Source: a virus (lineage: Duplodnaviria; Heunggongvirae; Uroviricota; Caudoviricetes). Taken from it: DNA of 40,147 bases. Position numbers and translations under genes: made by a program. The stretch is taken from the IMG/VR virus record IMGVR_UViG_2778261267_000001; one strand, written 5' to 3'. Shown here piece by piece: positions 16,492 to 38,380 of this stretch (its first letter is position 1; each line of letters opens with the position of its first letter). A model generated the notes under the pieces. That model saw only the letters and a program-made list of their open reading frames with translations, had not been told where the DNA came from and did not search any database.

Positions 16492-16569
16492 TTACCCAAA
16501 AGGTAATAATTCGTGCGTTAAATGTCAACTACCTACGATAAATAAATCATATGTGGTTAAATTGGTAAT
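16492..16569 (+). promoter_or_regulatory. Candidate late promoter region: TTACC-N5-GGTAA palindrome plus TATGTGGTT-N5-GGTAAT element
   Basis: TTACCCAAAAGGTAA at 16492-16506; TATGTGGTT at 16550-16558 followed by GGTAAT at 16564-16569; about 30 bp upstream of the first virion-block gene. Confidence 0.55.
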
Positions 16570-30100: not shown

Positions 30101-32575
30101 ATGAGACAGGAATGTATACAAGCGGTCCAGCAGGCGGCGCAGCGCACGTTAACGGCGCGAGAAATACAGAACATTGAAGACCGCATTTATCGAAATATGC
30201 GCTCCATTGCTCGTGATGACCCGATGTCGTGGCGACAACTTTCCGAATCAGAACGGTTGTATCGTGCAGCACAATTGGCATCTGAAGAATTACAGCGAGA
30301 AGCGGCATTAAAGAAACGTCGTGTGGCTCTCACTATAGCCGCACGTCAGAGATTGGATAAATTTATCAATAGCTATCAAGGGGCTGATGGGAAACTTGGC
30401 GCTCTTAACCGTACTATTGCTTTTAATGCAGACGGTAAATCGAATTTCCTCTCTGTTGAATCCAGAACAAAAGCCACTCGTGATTATGCATTGAGTCAAT
30501 TGCAGGAGGCATTTGAAGCAGTTGATCCTCGCTTTTTTGGCCTGTTTGAAGATGAAGCGGGCGTACGTGACCTGGTATATGAAATGCGGGGGCAAAATAC
30601 TGGCAATGCTAAAGCAAGAAAAGGTGCTAAAGCGTGGAGAGAAGTTACAGAGCTGCTGCGCCGCCGGTTTAATGATGCTGGTGGGGACATTGGCTATCTC
30701 GAAAACTGGGGGATCCCTCAACATCATTCTATGGAAAAGGTTGGTGCGGTATCAAAGGATAAGTGGGTTAGCGATGTTATAGGTAAGCTGGATCGCAAAT
30801 ATTATACCCGAGCCGATGGACAACTGATGAACGATGCCGAGTTGTCTGCATTTCTTGGAGAGGCTTATAACACGATCGCTACTGGTGGGCTGAATAAGCT
30901 TACTGATACCGGAATGCGAATTTCCGGCGCACGTGCTAACCGTGGTAATGCATCACGACAGATACATTTCAAAGATGCAGATTCCTATCTCCAATATCAA
31001 CAACTTTATGGCGATCGCTCTCTATGGGAAATCATGGTCGGTCACCTGGAAGGTATCAGTAAAGATATTGCTCTGGTGGAAACATATGGTCCAAACCCCG
31101 ATCATGTTTTCCGCTCCCTTCTTGATCAGGTTAAGGCAGAAACGGCAACAGCTAACCCGAGTAAAACCGGTAAAGTCGAGCGGCTGGCGAACAACACAGA
31201 GAATCTGTACAACTTTATTTCCGGAAAGACACAGCCTGTAGCGAATCCGCACATCGCGCGATGGTCTGACAATATCCGCAACTGGCTGGTTGCCAGCAGG
31301 CTCGGATCCGCGTTGCTGTCATCGTTCTCTGATCTTGGAACCATGTATCTGTCTGCGAAGGTTACCAACCTTCCAATGAACCAGTTATTCCGCAACCAGC
31401 TTGAAGCTATGGACCCAACGAACCGTACAGAACTTGCGCGGGCGCGCCGCGCTGGTCTGGCGATGGAATCTCTACTTGGCAGCGTTAACCGCTGGGCGAT
31501 GGATAATATGGGGCCGTCAGTGTCTCGTTGGGCGGCAACGGCGGTAATGCGTGCCAGTGGGCTTACAGCATGGTCAGATGCGCACAAGCGCGCCTATGGC
31601 GTAACCATGATGGGAAGCCTGGGAGAAGTAGTGTCACGGACACCAGACCTTCGTAGCCTTGATGACTCTGATTTTCGTATCCTGAAAAGCAAAGGGATTA
31701 CTGACACAGACTGGAGCGTATGGAAGTTGGCGCAACAGGAGGACTGGGGGAACGGTAATAATACGATGCTGACGCCGGAAAGCATTATGCGTATCCCTGA
31801 TTCAGCAGTTAAACATCTTGGTGAGCCTGAACGCGTGAAATTTGAGGCAATGCGTAAACTGCTCGGTGCCGTAACTGAAGAAGTTGATATGGCTGTTATT
31901 ACACCGGGAGCACGTGAGCAACTGATAACCGGTTCTGGTATTCAGCGTGGAACATGGAAAGGTGAATTAACGAGAAGTGTTTTCCTGTTTAAATCGTTCC
32001 CTATCTCGGTTGTTATGCGTCACTGGTCACGCGCTATGGGTATGCCGTCTGCTGGTGGGCGTGCGGCATATATTGCGACGTTTATTGCCAGTACGACCAT
32101 TCTTGGCGCTTTGTCGCAGCAACTTAACGACCTTGCGTCTGGTCGTAATCCTCGAGAGATGACAGGAGAAGATGCCGCAAAGTTCTGGCTTGGTGCTCTA
32201 CTGAAAGGTGGTGGTCTTGGCCTGTACGGTGACTTTTTATTGTCAGATCACACTAGGTACGGAAGCGGCGCGCTGGCGTCGATGCTTGGCCCGGTAGCTG
32301 GTCTGGTTGATGACGTAGTGAAGATTGCTCAGGGCATACCGTTAAATGCTGTGGAAGGGAAGAGTGAGCAGATTGGTGGTGATCTGGTGAAGCTGGGGAA
32401 AGGTTTGATGCCTGGTGCGAATCTCTGGTACTTGAAGGCGGCTCTCGATCACATGATCTTTAACCAGATGCAGGAGTATTTTTCACCAGGCTATTTGCGT
32501 AAAATGGAGCAACGTTCGAAGAAAGAGTTTAACCAGACATACTGGTGGCGACCTCAGGATGTCACTCCGCAATAA
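30101..32575 (+). CDS. Internal virion/ejection protein (T7 gp16-like position, 824 aa)
   Basis: Large ORF immediately upstream of the tailspike region; role by position only. Confidence 0.55.
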   Translation: MRQECIQAVQQAAQRTLTAREIQNIEDRIYRNMRSIARDDPMSWRQLSESERLYRAAQLASEELQREAALKKRRVALTIAARQRLDKFINSYQGADGKLGALNRTIAFNADGKSNFLSVESRTKATRDYALSQLQEAFEAVDPRFFGLFEDEAGVRDLVYEMRGQNTGNAKARKGAKAWREVTELLRRRFNDAGGDIGYLENWGIPQHHSMEKVGAVSKDKWVSDVIGKLDRKYYTRADGQLMNDAELSAFLGEAYNTIATGGLNKLTDTGMRISGARANRGNASRQIHFKDADSYLQYQQLYGDRSLWEIMVGHLEGISKDIALVETYGPNPDHVFRSLLDQVKAETATANPSKTGKVERLANNTENLYNFISGKTQPVANPHIARWSDNIRNWLVASRLGSALLSSFSDLGTMYLSAKVTNLPMNQLFRNQLEAMDPTNRTELARARRAGLAMESLLGSVNRWAMDNMGPSVSRWAATAVMRASGLTAWSDAHKRAYGVTMMGSLGEVVSRTPDLRSLDDSDFRILKSKGITDTDWSVWKLAQQEDWGNGNNTMLTPESIMRIPDSAVKHLGEPERVKFEAMRKLLGAVTEEVDMAVITPGAREQLITGSGIQRGTWKGELTRSVFLFKSFPISVVMRHWSRAMGMPSAGGRAAYIATFIASTTILGALSQQLNDLASGRNPREMTGEDAAKFWLGALLKGGGLGLYGDFLLSDHTRYGSGALASMLGPVAGLVDDVVKIAQGIPLNAVEGKSEQIGGDLVKLGKGLMPGANLWYLKAALDHMIFNQMQEYFSPGYLRKMEQRSKKEFNQTYWWRPQDVTPQ

Positions 32576-32584
32576 GGAAGTGTT

Positions 32585-32758
32585 GTGTTTTTAATTATTT
32601 TGAGTGTGATAATTTCTGGTGGATTGTTATTTATTGACCGCTACAAATATTTTCTTAACCCTCAGACTCAAGCTATTTGCTGGTTCATCTTTGTTGTGCA
32701 GGGAGTAGTTCTTGTTGCAAGCCTTATTGAGGGGAGGCCTCTTATTTTTACTGGGTAA
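32585..32758 (+). CDS. Small hydrophobic membrane protein (57 aa, GTG start)
   Basis: ORF below the track cut-off, translated by hand (VFLIILSVIISGGLLFIDRYKYFLNPQTQAICWFIFVVQGVVLVASLIEGRPLIFTG). Two predicted TM helices; AGGAAG 4 nt upstream of the GTG; AT-rich. Confidence 0.35.
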   Translation: MFLIILSVIISGGLLFIDRYKYFLNPQTQAICWFIFVVQGVVLVASLIEGRPLIFTG

Positions 32759-32770
32759 ATAGGTGACTAC

Positions 32771-33067
32771 ATGCAAGCTATAGGATTCATTGTTTATATC
32801 GTCGTTGGTCTTTTTCAGTTGGCAGCAATTATGGCTGGGCTTGAATCATGGTGGGGATTGCACTGGATAATTGCAGCCCCCATCGCTTTCATCGTGAGCT
32901 ATATTCCATTTGTTGGAGCGATTGTTGGTATGGTTGGCGCTGTGGATGTATGGCGGTGGGAGTGGTGGCAGGCTGGCCTTCTCTTCTTTGGTGGGATCAT
33001 CTTTGCTATTGTCTGCGGTGGAATGTCATCATTTTTCGAATGGCTATCATTCAGAAAAGGAACGTGA
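32771..33067 (+). CDS. Small integral membrane protein (98 aa)
   Basis: ORF with AGGTG RBS; almost entirely hydrophobic with Trp-rich loops (three or more TM helices); followed by a terminator. Confidence 0.55.
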   Translation: MQAIGFIVYIVVGLFQLAAIMAGLESWWGLHWIIAAPIAFIVSYIPFVGAIVGMVGAVDVWRWEWWQAGLLFFGGIIFAIVCGGMSSFFEWLSFRKGT

Positions 33068-33075
33068 CATGTCAC

Positions 33076-33100
33076 AGGCCGCTTTCGCGGCCTTTTCTTT
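33076..33100 (+). terminator. Intrinsic terminator after the membrane-protein genes
   Basis: AGGCCGC-TTTC-GCGGCCT hairpin followed by TTTCTTT; preceded by a 12-bp palindrome GTGACATGTCAC (33064-33075). Confidence 0.65.
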
Positions 33101-33374
33101 ATGTAGTTTGTTTTCGTAATTGTTCGGCACAATAGTCGAGATGTGTTTGCAGATCCTGCATAGACATCTGTGAGCTGGTGACGTAGTTAATCAGTGCAGT
33201 CAGTTCGGCAAGTGGGCCATCGACATTAAATCCATCCTTATCGAGATCCCGGAGTAATTTCATCAAGTGCGATCCATCCACCAGTGACCTGACGCCTCCC
33301 GGCGTGTGAATCCTTTCGGTAAATCCGTCTTCCAGTGGATAGTGATACTGCTGCATCTTATCTTCTCCATGCAA
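33099..33374 (-). CDS. Hypothetical protein (91 aa), divergent from the tailspike gene
   Basis: ORF convergent with the membrane-protein genes and sharing a 177-bp divergent control region with the tailspike gene; no motif recognised. Confidence 0.45.
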   Translation of the reverse strand: MHGEDKMQQYHYPLEDGFTERIHTPGGVRSLVDGSHLMKLLRDLDKDGFNVDGPLAELTALINYVTSSQMSMQDLQTHLDYCAEQLRKQTT

Positions 33375-33432
33375 TAACTGTATATTTATACAGTATCAAA
33401 TAATTTGTTTGCTATCCAGCACGTTTTGCGAA

Positions 33433-33498
33433 TTACCTGAAAGGTAATATCTATTCGTGTTTATGGGTTATCTATCCATATGTGGTTTTTAAGGTAAT
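33433..33498. promoter_or_regulatory. Tailspike / divergent-gene control region: TTACC-N5-GGTAA palindrome plus TATGTGGTT-N5-GGTAAT element
   Basis: TTACCTGAAAGGTAA at 33433-33447; TATGTGGTT at 33479-33487; GGTAAT at 33493-33498. Confidence 0.55.
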
Positions 33499-33551
33499 AG
33501 AATAACCGGATATGCGGCGCAACGGGTGCTGCGACTATCTGGAGATTTAAC

Positions 33552-35750
33552 ATGACGGTCTCAACCGAAGTTGACCACAACGAATACACAGGTAACGGCG
33601 TTACGACATCGTTTCCGTATACCTTCCGCATTTTCAAAAAATCCGACCTGGTTGTTCAGGTGGTTGACCTTGACGAAAATATCGCTGTGCTGGCTCTTGA
33701 TACTGATTATACAGTTACCGGGGCGGGAGGATATAACGGTGGTAATGTAATTCTGTCGAAGGCGCTGGCTAACGGTTATAAGATTTCTATATCACGAGAG
33801 CTACCGGTTACTCAGGAAACTGATCTGCGCAATCAGGGCAAGTTCTTTGCAGAAGTGCATGAGGATGCTTTTGATAAACTGACTATGCTGATTCAGCAGG
33901 CTATTAGTTTGTTGCGTCTTTCTCTGCGTAAACCGTCTTTTGTCGCAAATTACTATGATGCTCTGAACAATTACATTCGCAATCTTCGTGACCCGTCACG
34001 TCCACAGGATGCAGCAACAAAGAATTATGTTGATAGTCTTGCTGAAGAAAATTTAAGACGAACTTTGCGAACCCCTGAACGGATACCAGAACTCCCTGGA
34101 GTTGAACAGCGTAAGAATAAGATTATTGCAATGGATGATTCTGGAAATCCGATAATGGTTTTGCCTGAATCTGGTTCAGCATCAGATGTTCTGATTGAAC
34201 TAGCTAAGCCAAGCGGCCTTGGTATGATAGGGGCATCTTCTGGAAATAGTGCGCAGGCTGATATTGATTTATTGTCTTATGCTTACGGTATAAGATTAAG
34301 CACTTACCTTGATCGCGAAGACCCTTTGAGTGATGCTCTGATTGATTCACGATCAAAAAATCTACCATTAGTCATTGACTGCGATGCGACGTACAAAACA
34401 TTTCTGGTTTACAGTAACGACAGGATAATCGGTTGCGGAGATCATACTTTAACAAAAGCAGGGAATGACAAGTCATCAATACCATCAGCACAGCAACCTG
34501 AACGCCCACCTGGAACGATGACAGATTTCAGCGCGATTGATGCCGGTATTATTATCGTTCACCCTGAAAATGGAGCAGCAACTAATATCGAAATCACAGG
34601 GTTTAACATAAAAAGCAACTCTCACTCCGAATATGGAATATATCATCCTGTTTTATCATTTTCACGTATATCTAATATCAAAATTACTGGCTTTAAAAAG
34701 GGGATGAGAGCAAAAGACTCTTATGGAAACCAGTTTAGTAAAATATTCTCATTGTATTATTACTCTCCCCAAGATGTTTATAGCGACAACTATTGTTATG
34801 ATTTTTCTGATGGAGATTACGCCTCAGGAACAAGTAACACATTCAGTAATGTTACCTGTACTAACTATAAGAGACCATTCTTCTTTCAGAACCATAATTA
34901 CTTCACGATGACAAACTGTGGTGGTGAAGGGGTTAATACGCATGAGGCAGTAACAAACACAAACTATCCTCTTGTTTTTGAGTTTGTAAATGTTGTAAGT
35001 GCTGTATTGAACACTCCTTATACTGAAAATCTTTATGGAGGATTTTTAAGAGCAACATCAACGCCTGAAGGAACTGCGCAAGGTCCATCAACTATAGTTA
35101 TAAATGGACCGCAGGCAATTACAGGCATATACGGAACAGACACTGAAGTTGGAGCAAAGTTATTTGATGTAAGCGGCTCAGTAAACGTAGCTGTTAATGG
35201 TGGGGTGTTGACAGGTGCATCATTTGGCAAGTTCCTTAAGTTTGGCGGGGCTTCAGACGAAGCATGTCTGCTGATAACGGGCATGGATATGAAGTATGTG
35301 CTGTCTCAAATACGTAGTGATTTTGGATATAACGGAATTAATTCAGTTAAAGGACTTAGGCCAATTCAAATTTTGAGGAATGGAATTGGCTCTGCAACTG
35401 GTAGCGGGATTGTTAACTGGAAAAGTGCATCTATAGATGATTATTTTATGAATGGCGGTAATTATACAAAAACAGCGCTTGGTGGTTTTTATAAGATAGA
35501 AATTACGCTGCCAATAGGATCATCTGCATCAGGTGGAGAAGTTCAACTCTTGCTGTCAGATACGGATACAGACAATGGAGTTATAATTTCACAATGCTAT
35601 GTTCCTCCAGTGTCAAGCGGTAAGTTTACTGCCTCCATAAGCTACGAAGGTAGATTGCCTGGAGGAAAGTACCTTTATGTAAAGGCTAATAATGCCAGCT
35701 GGTCATCTGCATACGACATTGATTCAGTGTTTAATGTAATCCTGAAGTAA
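33552..35750 (+). CDS. Tailspike / receptor-binding protein with a low-GC C-terminal (likely O-antigen-directed) domain
   Basis: 732-aa ORF with strong RBS. N-terminal ~170 aa at normal GC, remainder markedly AT-rich; C-terminal region rich in N/G/S/T, consistent with a beta-helix receptor-binding fold. Confidence 0.8.
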   Translation: MTVSTEVDHNEYTGNGVTTSFPYTFRIFKKSDLVVQVVDLDENIAVLALDTDYTVTGAGGYNGGNVILSKALANGYKISISRELPVTQETDLRNQGKFFAEVHEDAFDKLTMLIQQAISLLRLSLRKPSFVANYYDALNNYIRNLRDPSRPQDAATKNYVDSLAEENLRRTLRTPERIPELPGVEQRKNKIIAMDDSGNPIMVLPESGSASDVLIELAKPSGLGMIGASSGNSAQADIDLLSYAYGIRLSTYLDREDPLSDALIDSRSKNLPLVIDCDATYKTFLVYSNDRIIGCGDHTLTKAGNDKSSIPSAQQPERPPGTMTDFSAIDAGIIIVHPENGAATNIEITGFNIKSNSHSEYGIYHPVLSFSRISNIKITGFKKGMRAKDSYGNQFSKIFSLYYYSPQDVYSDNYCYDFSDGDYASGTSNTFSNVTCTNYKRPFFFQNHNYFTMTNCGGEGVNTHEAVTNTNYPLVFEFVNVVSAVLNTPYTENLYGGFLRATSTPEGTAQGPSTIVINGPQAITGIYGTDTEVGAKLFDVSGSVNVAVNGGVLTGASFGKFLKFGGASDEACLLITGMDMKYVLSQIRSDFGYNGINSVKGLRPIQILRNGIGSATGSGIVNWKSASIDDYFMNGGNYTKTALGGFYKIEITLPIGSSASGGEVQLLLSDTDTDNGVIISQCYVPPVSSGKFTASISYEGRLPGGKYLYVKANNASWSSAYDIDSVFNVILK

Positions 35751-35777: not shown

Positions 35778-36836
35778 TTACTTTATAAAGCGGCGACCTA
35801 TTGAAATAAAATGCTTTTCAATTAGTTCGTGCACTGCCACTGATATTATTAAGGTGATTGATAAAACTATAAACAACCTAGAAAACCCTGATGTGTTTGT
35901 GAAAATAAATGTATCGTACTTATAAATGCACTCAAGTATAATTACATGCACTATATATAATGAATAAGATATATCCCCGAGGTACTCAAGAGTGTTGCAT
36001 TTTTTTATTCCATTATTTTTTTCATACATAACTAAAATAAATACTATTAGAGCGCTTAGCCCCCCCCACTTTAATGGGCCGTGACCATAGAATAAATTAA
36101 TCTGGGATGCAATTAACGAAAATAACAGAAGCAATAGCCAAGGTGTAATTTTATTAAACAATATGGACTTGAAATCTACATGTTTGTATATTGCATATAT
36201 AATAATCCCATATACAAAATCAAGAAACATTGGTGAATAGAAAAGAGCGAATGCATTGCTTGGCGTTACGTTAACTTGTTTTGTATAAGCATCTGTAGAA
36301 ATCGAATCATTGAAATAGTAAGAGGCCACAATGAATATTACAACGATAGATAGCAAGCTAATGCATGTTCTGTATTTTTGATTGAAGGCAATAGCCAACC
36401 CAAAAATAGCATAGAATGCGATTTCATAAGTTATCGTCCATGCAGTATCAAGTAAATTGAACCCATAAAAAGGACTTCCTGCAGAATAATCGCTATGTAT
36501 TGGTATTAATGATTTTATGTATAATGAGTAACTGGATTCTGATTTAATGGTTAAGAAATAAACTGTCACGCATATTATCAGTAAAGGATAAATCCTGAAA
36601 AAACGACGAATAAAAAAATTAAATACGGCGTGCTTTTCAAGCCTTTCAGTTGAAAGGCATATTATAAATCCGCTAATTATAAAAAAAAGGTCAACACCGA
36701 AAGCCCCGTAATTGAAAAGCAAAGAACCTAGATCCTTCTGTGAGTAAACTTCATTCAAATACCACTTCGTATGATAAAGAACCACAAAAATAGAAGCAAA
36801 TCCCCTCATGTATTGTATTGAATGAACTTTGTTCAA
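35778..36836 (-). CDS. Acyltransferase family 3 membrane protein (probable O-antigen acetyltransferase, lysogenic conversion)
   Basis: 352-aa very AT-rich ORF with about ten hydrophobic segments and an N-terminal MRGFASIFVVLYH segment typical of acyltransferase_3 enzymes. Confidence 0.8.
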   Translation of the reverse strand: MNKVHSIQYMRGFASIFVVLYHTKWYLNEVYSQKDLGSLLFNYGAFGVDLFFIISGFIICLSTERLEKHAVFNFFIRRFFRIYPLLIICVTVYFLTIKSESSYSLYIKSLIPIHSDYSAGSPFYGFNLLDTAWTITYEIAFYAIFGLAIAFNQKYRTCISLLSIVVIFIVASYYFNDSISTDAYTKQVNVTPSNAFALFYSPMFLDFVYGIIIYAIYKHVDFKSILFNKITPWLLLLLFSLIASQINLFYGHGPLKWGGLSALIVFILVMYEKNNGIKKCNTLEYLGDISYSLYIVHVIILECIYKYDTFIFTNTSGFSRLFIVLSITLIISVAVHELIEKHFISIGRRFIK

Positions 36837-37046
36837 TTAAATAACCCTCTGCTTAATAATATTTTTACATAACTGTAAGTTATTTTGATTCTCATAAGAA
36901 CCAATGGTTTTTAGAAAACCACCACAAGCAAATCGAAGTTTATCACCTTTGGGGTAATTGCGGTAGAATTGGTATGACGTTTTTTGAACCGCATATGGTT
37001 TATTGTGTATGATGAACTCATCAATAAGTTGGTTCTTCATGCACAT
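36837..37046 (-). CDS. Hypothetical small protein (69 aa) upstream of the acyltransferase - doubtful
   Basis: AT-rich ORF abutting the acyltransferase start; a near-operator palindrome (36943-36957) lies inside it, so this may be promoter DNA rather than a gene. Confidence 0.3.
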   Translation of the reverse strand: MCMKNQLIDEFIIHNKPYAVQKTSYQFYRNYPKGDKLRFACGGFLKTIGSYENQNNLQLCKNIIKQRVI

Positions 37047-37061
37047 TAAACGGTGGTTTTT

Positions 37062-37466
37062 ATGTCAGTTCAGCTAACCAGTGAGTCTTTAAATCAGTGG
37101 CTTAGTGCTGGTTCTCTTGCTGCGGTGATAGCAGGGGTTCCTCCAGAGGTGGCTTTGGGGGCTTTGGCTGGGGCGGTAATTTTTGTTACCTCGGCCATCG
37201 AGTATCCCATTCATCGCCGGGTTCTCCTGTCTATGCTCAGCTTCCTCTGCGGCCTTCTCTTTTACAAACCTACAGCGTCCATCCTTATCGGTGTAGCCAG
37301 CCTGATCCCTACCATCACGCAGGACTCTTTCGAGAAAGGGATTGTTTTCTCTGCTGGTGCATTCGTGTCAGCAATCGTTGCAGTTCGAATTGGCATCTGG
37401 CTCTATCACCGTTCCGATAATCCACGCGAGTTAATTCCGGGGAGAAAAGACGATGGTAACGCATGA
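37062..37466 (+). CDS. Holin-like membrane protein
   Basis: 134 aa from the ATG at 37062; three or more hydrophobic helices; first gene of the lysis cassette, upstream of the endolysin. Confidence 0.5.
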   Translation: MSVQLTSESLNQWLSAGSLAAVIAGVPPEVALGALAGAVIFVTSAIEYPIHRRVLLSMLSFLCGLLFYKPTASILIGVASLIPTITQDSFEKGIVFSAGAFVSAIVAVRIGIWLYHRSDNPRELIPGRKDDGNA

Positions 37467-37761
37467 GCTTTTTTTGCTTATCACCAATGCAGTTATTTGT
37501 ACTGGCATAGCAATTCGTGTTGTCACATTCCGGCGTAACGGATCTCAACACCGAAGATGGGGAGGCTGGCTTGCTTATTTTCTGATTGTTGCTGCGGCCA
37601 GTATTCCAGTTCGTGCTGTCTATGCAATCTGGCTACGCACGCCAATGGCTGTGGATTTATCTGAGGTCATTATCAACGCTGTCATGTTTGCTGCGGTTGT
37701 TAAAACGCGCGGTAACGTCGTTCAGTTTTTCAAAATAACGAGGTCTAAACATGGAGATTAA
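37453..37761 (+). CDS. Second small membrane protein of the lysis cassette (holin/antiholin candidate)
   Basis: 102-aa ORF with three hydrophobic segments, overlapping both neighbours. Confidence 0.5.
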
Positions 37762-38380
37762 ACAATTCCAGCGAGCTGCTGGTATTAGCGAGGCGCTGGC
37801 CGCACGCTGGTTCTCGCATATAACTTCTGCGATGAAAGAGTTTGGTATCAGCAAACCAGAAGATCAGGCAATGTTTATTGCTCAGGTCGGGCATGAGTCT
37901 GGAGGCTTCACCCGGCTGCAGGAGAACTTCAACTACAGCGTGACCGGGCTGGCGGGATTCGTCCGTTCCGGGCGCCTCACTCAGGGCCAGGCCAACGCGC
38001 TGGGCCGTCGTGCTGGTGAGCCATCGTTACCGCTGGAGCGCCAGCGTGCGATCGCCAATCTGGTGTATAGCAAGCGCATGGGGAACAACGGGCCGACTGA
38101 CGGCTGGTTTTACCGTGGGCGCGGGCTTATCCAGATTACCGGTTTGAATAACTATCGTGACTGCGGAAACGGTCTAAAAGTGGACCTGCTGGAGAATCCT
38201 GAGCTGTTGACGCAGGACGAATACGCGGCTCGTAGCGCGGCGTGGTTCTTCTCCAGCAAAGGCTGCATGAAGTATCCCGGAGATATTGCACGTGTAACTC
38301 TGATTATCAATGGTGGCCGGAACGGCATCGACGACCGGCGCGCGCGGTACGTTACTGCCAGTAAGGTGCTGGCCGTATGA
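37751..38380 (+). CDS. Endolysin, glycoside hydrolase family 19 (chitinase-like lysozyme)
   Basis: 209-aa ORF; the segment [12 protein letters not shown]...[11 protein letters not shown] matches the GH19 catalytic core as used by phage endolysins. Confidence 0.8.

Follow-up and report, generated by a model that had tools for sequence, protein, structure and literature searches.

An SPC32H-like antirepressor gene and a variable pair of predicted membrane-protein genes at the virion–tailspike junction of an epsilon15/phiV10-type prophage

The DNA analysed here, IMG/VR virus record IMGVR_UViG_2778261267_000001, is a stretch of 40,147 nucleotides that we refer to as the window, and this text concerns the junction between its last large virion gene and its tailspike gene (Table 1). 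The window is a prophage of the epsilon15/phiV10 type (genus Uetakevirus), with matches to phiV10, SPC32H, and further members of that genus, and its junction has 100% identity to that of a prophage in E. coli BS15R-A. Two small plus-strand genes for proteins of 57 and 98 amino acids (aa), a terminator of their own, and a convergent minus-strand open reading frame (ORF, 33099-33374) lie there, all of which had been picked out in an earlier note on this DNA. That note took the gene order of T7 as its reference and saw an inserted module of three genes, but the phage is epsilon15/phiV10-like and T7 is the wrong genus for judging an insertion. In all Uetakevirus members examined, the tailspike gene and the last large virion gene have a small membrane-protein gene and a minus-strand gene of 85-86 aa between them, which means that the three genes do not make up a single insertion. 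We see here the ordinary virion-gene/tailspike junction of such a prophage, and it holds two unrelated things: the gene that we call ant and the pair of 57-aa and 98-aa genes. In the RefSeq entry for BS15R-A the 98-aa gene and the minus-strand gene are both labelled 'hypothetical protein', and the 57-aa ORF was left unannotated there by the Prokaryotic Genome Annotation Pipeline (PGAP); it is also missing from the records of phiv142-3 and Klebsiella phage BUCT711.

Table 1. Features of the junction and of associated genes and control elements in the window
Feature	Position	Strand	Remarks
Rep, SPC32H-type repressor, 194 aa	5100..5684	-	presumed Ant target; PDB 5d50_A 'Repressor', E=4.1e-42
Last large virion gene (ejection/tail-tube type), 824 aa	30101..32575	+	phiV10p20 homologue; phiV10p20 is a 'virion structural protein'
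57-aa gene, predicted two-segment inner-membrane protein	32585..32758	+	GTG start, AAGGAAG ribosome-binding site
98-aa gene, predicted three-segment inner-membrane protein	32771..33067	+	phrog_3075; WP_001147904.1
Conserved palindrome GTGACATGTCAC and intrinsic terminator	33064..33103	+	ends virion operon
ant, SPC32H-type SOS-controlled antirepressor, 85 aa	33099..33356	-	homology to PDB 5d50_E
LexA box AACTGTATATTTATACAGTA	33376..33395		core CTGT-N8-ACAG at 33378-33393, 22 nucleotides upstream of ant ATG
Palindrome ATTACCTGAAAGGTAAT, TTACC-N5-GGTAA copy, putative Rep operator	33432..33448		ant-tailspike intergenic region
TTACC-N5-GGTAA copies	4966, 5028, 5740, 5788, 8071, 8133, 13328, 13346, 16492, 33433, 36943
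Tailspike gene	33552..35750	+	right-hand junction boundary
Acyl_transf_3 gene	35778-36836		near tailspike
Lysis cassette	37053-38380		two holin-family genes and endolysin; 4 kb from the 57-aa and 98-aa genes

Judged from its sequence, the minus-strand gene almost certainly encodes the antirepressor Ant. The product matches PDB chain 5d50_E, 'Anti-repressor protein', with E=3.3e-47 (phmmer) and 73 identities among 84 aligned residues (~87%; residues 2-85 on 3-86), and it matches phrog_450 with E=1.9e-47. Alignment to this 86-aa chain placed the start codon, an ATG preceded by a GGAG site, at 33356, which makes the protein 85 aa long and not 91 aa as had been noted before. The gene occupies the position of the annotated ant in SPC32H, whose Ant-Rep switch is represented by PDB entries 5D50 and 5D4Z, and was found in all relatives examined. 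Thus, of the three-gene module proposed earlier, a variable membrane cassette with its terminator is what stands, and the convergent gene does not belong to it.

The motif CTGT-N8-ACAG has a single match in the 40-kb window, just upstream of ant, and what the earlier note had taken for an operator beside the convergent gene is this LexA box. We take the 20-mer AACTGTATATTTATACAGTA to be close to the E. coli LexA consensus. The box is kept at the same place in SPC32H, phiV10, and 65FD, and the prophages of Cronobacter and Yersinia have a degenerate form of it. In Rep, which Ant presumably targets, the domain scan showed helix-turn-helix domains only and no Peptidase_S24 match. As described for SPC32H in PMC7380047, which summarises Kim and Ryu (2013), and in PMC9638917, LexA represses ant in that phage; once the DNA is damaged, Ant attaches to Rep and takes the tetramer apart, whereupon the prophage is induced. 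By analogy, host LexA in a lysogen of the window phage would sit on the box, which overlaps the ant promoter; DNA damage would remove LexA and allow Ant to be made; and Ant would then bind Rep and break up its DNA-binding tetramer, leading to prophage induction. LexA binding and Rep binding by the window's system are in this scheme taken from the SPC32H work. The two systems are alike in their Ant proteins, in having homologous Rep proteins, in the place of the LexA box upstream of ant, and in the orientation of ant, which points towards the virion operon and away from the tailspike gene. They differ in host (Salmonella for SPC32H, E. coli here), in the neighbouring slot, which holds only a 46-aa membrane gene in SPC32H, and in the strength of the match, which is lower for Rep than for Ant (phmmer E=4e-42 vs 3e-47).

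Larger relatives of Ant occur as accessory genes at the same junction. Two Bro-N antirepressors encoded there (locus L003, 6934-7662(-), and locus L017, 7407-8222(-)) have C-terminal regions of ~80 residues that are 38% identical to Ant, and Ant also matches the C-terminal end of the anti-repressor family phrog_1760. From these two matches it appears that Ant corresponds to the C-terminal domain of the larger Bro-N proteins, present as a protein in its own right.

A second regulatory element, the palindrome TTACC-N5-GGTAA, is present in 11 copies in the window at no more than one mismatch, compared with 0.68 expected. The copies flank rep and head several apparent transcription units, including those at 16492 upstream of the virion genes, at 33433 before the tailspike gene, and at 36943 before the holin gene. 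The copy between ant and the tailspike gene, ATTACCTGAAAGGTAAT, is conserved in six phages and prophages. These palindromes are probably operators for Rep; if so, the repressor would directly control many operons.

The 57-aa and 98-aa ORFs are both real genes under purifying selection. Compared with Klebsiella phage BUCT711, the ratio of nonsynonymous to synonymous substitution rates (dN/dS) is 0.17 for the 57-aa gene, with ORF length kept, and 0.022 for the 98-aa gene, in which 45 of the 52 differences fall at third codon positions. The 98-aa gene is also overlapped, in other frames, by three ORFs of 69-95 aa (32848-33135(+), 32899-33132(-), and 32910-33119(+)), whose translations match relatives as well. 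These were rejected as genes and are shadow ORFs, as the third-position variation falls in the 98-aa frame. Both genes had been described as AT-rich, which is true of the 57-aa gene (36.8% G+C) and does not extend to the 98-aa gene (46.5%, against 48.6% for the whole window).

The description of both products as very hydrophobic was confirmed, with grand average of hydropathy (GRAVY) values of 1.31 for the 57-aa protein and 1.24 for the 98-aa protein. Hydropathy analysis gave two hydrophobic segments with a basic loop, DRYKY, for the former and three hydrophobic segments for the latter. An AlphaFold2 model of the 98-aa protein was confident, with a predicted local distance difference test (pLDDT) score of 90.4, and contained helices at residues 2-28, 32-42, 46-59, and 65-97. 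Both products are thus predicted to be inner-membrane proteins. Since the only positive cluster of the 98-aa protein is at its C-terminus (R95 and K96), we infer from the positive-inside rule that its N-terminus is out and its C-terminus in.

The two genes are the last two cistrons of a long virion operon that is closed by a strong terminator. The GTG start of the 57-aa gene lies 10 nucleotides past the stop codon of the 824-aa virion gene, leaving a 9-nucleotide gap. At the other end, GTGACATGTCAC forms a perfect 12-bp palindrome (33064-33075) that overlaps the TGA stop of the 98-aa gene and stands directly before the terminator hairpin, which consists of a stem at 33076-33093 with seven pairs (six of them G-C) and a T-run to 33103. 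An Rfam scan of 32000-34000 gave chance-level matches only. The virion protein encoded upstream is 87% identical in Klebsiella and 24-26% identical in Cronobacter and Salmonella prophages, and the genes adjoining its homologues in relatives match SLT and, faintly, T7_gp14.

Comparison with relatives showed that the occupant of this site varies. In phiV10, SPC32H, PAS61, and 65FD a gene for a 46-aa two-segment membrane protein comes 10 nucleotides after the last large virion gene, with GTGACATGTCAC and the hairpin directly behind it and ant next. The 57-aa and 98-aa genes replace the 46-aa gene in the window, phiv142-3, HEMP4, YDC107_2, and BUCT711, and the 98-aa gene of phiv142-3 is identical to that of the window. 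The palindrome GTGACATGTCAC also marks the right-hand boundary of the exchangeable cassette. We surveyed this slot, defined as the plus-strand position 5-10 nucleotides after the last large virion gene, in 80 Ant-encoding viral contigs, 45 of which had the end of an epsilon15-type large virion gene within 7 kb. The pair of 57-aa and 98-aa genes filled the slot in 17 of these 45 contigs and the 46-aa gene in 13. A lipoprotein of 126-138 aa preceded by a tiny membrane ORF was found in six, a 137-aa lipoprotein in four, and a 186-aa signal-peptide protein in three; a 123-aa signal-peptide protein stood alone in one contig and was followed by the 98-aa gene in another. The slot is very probably a cassette site, whose occupants are unrelated to one another yet all directed to the envelope, and which replace one another.

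The 46-aa protein (phiV10p21/SPC32H_019, 'putative integral membrane protein') resembles the 57-aa protein in its position 10 nucleotides past the last large virion gene and in its two hydrophobic segments with a basic loop, and the same palindrome and terminator follow it. It differs in its company: among the 45 contigs the 57-aa gene was always accompanied by the 98-aa gene and the 46-aa gene was never followed by it. That the 57-aa protein is a diverged form of phiV10p21 was considered and rejected as unsupported (20-25% identity, hhalign probability 0.5%). Obligate pairing of the 57-aa and 98-aa proteins was likewise rejected, as prophages of Cronobacter, Salmonella, and Yersinia as well as contig L093 have the 98-aa gene but lack the 57-aa gene, and the 57-aa type has other partners. 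In Enterobacter and Salmonella prophages a gene of the 57-aa type precedes that of an unrelated 92-aa membrane protein or of a 128-aa lipoprotein. The 57-aa protein itself falls into 13 protein clusters in Enterobacterales.

Among 5426 complete E. coli genomes, the ant segment is present in 529 and the pair in 216, or ~40% of those with ant. Of the three genes, only those of the pair are variable. Because the pair is absent from ~60% of the related E. coli prophages, it is dispensable to the phage. The interval between the terminator and ant also carries varied cargo in relatives on the minus strand, including Bro-N antirepressors, YafO or HicAB toxin-antitoxin genes, a DUF2335 protein, and a 53-aa anchored protein.

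The remaining 35 of the 80 contigs encode a near-identical Ant and showed no end of an epsilon15-type large virion gene in the up to 7 kb of upstream sequence fetched. One of these, L033 (phage TL-2011b), has a different genome architecture, and at least four (L051, L081, L086, and L090) have under 1 kb of sequence ahead of ant before the contig ends. The 35 contigs suggest that the unit of ant and tailspike may move between phage types.

The right-hand boundary of the junction is formed by a tailspike gene whose product, among relatives, has a conserved N-terminus and a hypervariable receptor-binding part. Members of the epsilon15 group have small membrane proteins that take part in O-antigen conversion, and the pair lies near the tailspike gene and the Acyl_transf_3 gene. 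From this neighbourhood the earlier note had suggested that the pair might be a seroconversion component that inhibits the host O-antigen polymerase (Wzy); it could otherwise assist the neighbouring acyltransferase. Both forms of the idea are very improbable. The ant and tailspike genes stand between the pair and the acyltransferase gene. The 98-aa gene was found with 12 of 38 tailspike receptor-binding clusters and could be present or absent within one and the same cluster. The O-antigen modification genes in its vicinity differ or are absent, as its neighbours are GtrABC-type genes in Cronobacter and a GDSL-esterase tailspike in Klebsiella, and Yersinia lacks a modification gene there. In addition, homologues of the 98-aa protein occur in Alphaproteobacteria and outside prophages.

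The position of the pair recalls that of sieA in phage P22. The P22 gene is located between gene 16 and gene 9, and its product is a protein of the inner membrane which prevents the injection of DNA and from which the phage escapes by mutation of the ejection proteins gp16 and gp20 (PMC10883804). Like sieA, the pair lies between the last ejection-type gene and the tailspike gene and adjoins an antirepressor region, and like sieA it is variably present among related phages; SieA is an integral inner-membrane protein, as hydropathy and the AlphaFold2 helices predict for the products of the pair. It is because of this equivalent position and the analogy it offers that we favour superinfection exclusion, another suggestion of the earlier note, as the function of the pair. 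The products of the pair, above all the 98-aa protein with its strong conservation, would reside in the inner membrane and interfere with DNA delivery by related phages, in parallel to SieA, whose action is on the ejection-protein conduit. Exclusion is a reasonable hypothesis with circumstantial backing, because the slot holds interchangeable envelope proteins in relatives.

Small inner-membrane exclusion proteins that are encoded beside virion or DNA-delivery genes and are dispensable for phage growth are known from other phages, with HK97 gp15 and T4 Imm as examples of demonstrated activity. Neither has a sequence relationship to the pair, and whereas their exclusion has been demonstrated, that of the pair is proposed by analogy. 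We put the probability of the explanation as a whole, which combines the Ant switch with a membrane cassette acting in exclusion, at roughly 0.4. Taken by itself, the part of it that makes the pair a SieA-like block of phage DNA entry is possible but somewhat improbable. A broader proposal can be framed, in which the slot would be a hypervariable exclusion site and the three-segment 98-aa family, which has no Pfam model, would be a new superinfection-exclusion family that, partnered by the 57-aa protein, stops podophage DNA delivery at the inner-membrane step; this we regard as doubtful.

Several observations weigh against exclusion, the first of which concern expression. The promoter scan found no sigma-70-like site upstream of the 57-aa or the 98-aa gene, and the gap upstream of the pair measures nine nucleotides, unlike P22 sieA, which has its own promoter, PsieA. 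The best promoter candidate found by eye, a weak TTGTTA-N18-TATTTT inside the 57-aa gene, was not counted. In addition, the extended series of plus-strand virion ORFs that the terminator closes has a putative Rep operator, at 16492, upstream of it, and for this reason the pair may be made only in lytic growth and be silent in the lysogen.

The same features would suit a late lytic membrane function, in which the proteins are made only together with the virion proteins and affect lysis timing in the manner of a holin or antiholin, alter the state of the membrane, or protect the infected cell late in the cycle. The pair would then have no promoter of its own, would be tightly coupled to the virion operon, and would lie behind a putative Rep operator, all as observed. 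Class I holins are about the size of the 98-aa protein and have about the same number of membrane segments, and the 98-aa protein has a weak Pfam match to Phage_holin_5_2 (E=0.027). This match reaches 15.2 bits against a cut-off of 29.2, however, and is shared by only four of 28 family members. The phage has its own lysis cassette, the pair is dispensable as judged from its absence in relatives, stand-alone homologues occur on chromosomes without any phage, and the other occupants of the slot include lipoproteins and secreted proteins. A late lytic role is consequently quite improbable.

Searches for relatives of known function also weigh against exclusion. No likeness of the pair to SieA or to any defence family, in sequence or in fold, was found in sequence, defence-model, and structure searches. 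Scans of the 57-aa and 98-aa proteins against Pfam, NCBIfam, and PADLOC gave no usable match, the AlphaFold2 model of the 98-aa protein matched no known fold in the structure search, and phrog_3075, to which the 98-aa protein belongs, is a family of unknown function. Compared directly with SieA, which has ~162 aa, the proteins of 98 and 57 aa are shorter, lack the FxRYPxEAxxFNK motif, and show no sequence similarity. A tblastn search of both proteins against 50,697 phage records returned only Uetakevirus-type records and no P22-like phage.

The breadth and the conservation of the 98-aa family are further points of this kind. Unlike SieA, the family is not restricted to this phage type. A profile search returned 748 cluster representatives at 50% identity. 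Homologues with 50-90% identity are found in Klebsiella, Cronobacter, Dickeya, Yersinia, Kosakonia, and Salmonella, and share an invariant core around VGMVGAxDVWxWEWWQAGLLFFGG. In podophage-type prophages of Cronobacter, Yersinia, and Salmonella the gene stands right behind the last large virion gene, with a start only one nucleotide past the stop in Cronobacter, and the virion proteins beside it are 24-26% identical to those of the window or have no detectable similarity to them. The 98-aa protein is 54-61% identical where the adjacent virion protein is only 24-26% identical, and because it is more conserved than that protein, it does not behave as would be expected of a partner in an arms race. 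Stand-alone copies occur outside phages: on a Buttiauxella chromosome (L022, 5959-6285) a homologue lies directly downstream of umuD-umuC, beside yejM-like and yejK-like genes and with no phage genes in view, Alphaproteobacteria have stand-alone copies near a serine recombinase or integrase gene, and Microvirga has one with aconitase and GntR genes at its side. Some members of the family are fused to DUF805, RDD, zinc-ribbon, or MORN domains, which we followed up as clues to the function of the 98-aa domain and which gave no lead. Taken together, the breadth and conservation of the family fit a general membrane function at least as well as exclusion.

One such function would be that of a moron, in which the 98-aa protein, with or without the 57-aa protein, alters some trait of the host envelope, for instance membrane homeostasis or the tolerance of stress or serum, does not act specifically on phage entry, and is found at the end of the operon as a permissive insertion site. 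The size of the family, its chromosomal copies outside podophage contexts, its domain fusions, and a sequence far more conserved than that of the neighbouring virion proteins are all consistent with this. Prophage phiv142-3, which carries the identical 98-aa gene, raises the serum survival of its host (PMC7724020), but this effect was assigned to orf6 and orf10, and orf12, which is the 98-aa gene, does not appear with the genes induced by serum in a table that lists up-regulated genes only (PMC7724020). Of the features by which morons are recognised, variable presence and a terminator were seen, no promoter was found, and low G+C content is confined to the 57-aa gene. Two more points count against a role in host physiology. 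In four podophage lineages the place of the gene is unchanged, immediately after the last large virion gene, and every alternative occupant of the slot is an envelope protein, a pattern that fits conflict between phages better than housekeeping. We consider this explanation rather unlikely.

What was known before comprises Ant, its LexA box, Rep, and the overall gene order of annotated Uetakevirus genomes, but not the uncharacterised proteins of 57 and 98 aa. The literature searched held no description of the slot as a cassette site for envelope proteins; as such it is a variation on a familiar theme, that of accessory genes at the ends of operons. Counted by the ant segment, prophages of this type are present in roughly a tenth of the complete E. 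coli genomes. Recognition of ant, the LexA box, and Rep explains the induction of these prophages and corrects the labels that RefSeq gives to their genes. The cassette slot is a compact place in which to search for genes that exclude phages at the level of the envelope, and is relevant to phage typing and therapy with O-antigen-specific E. coli phages.

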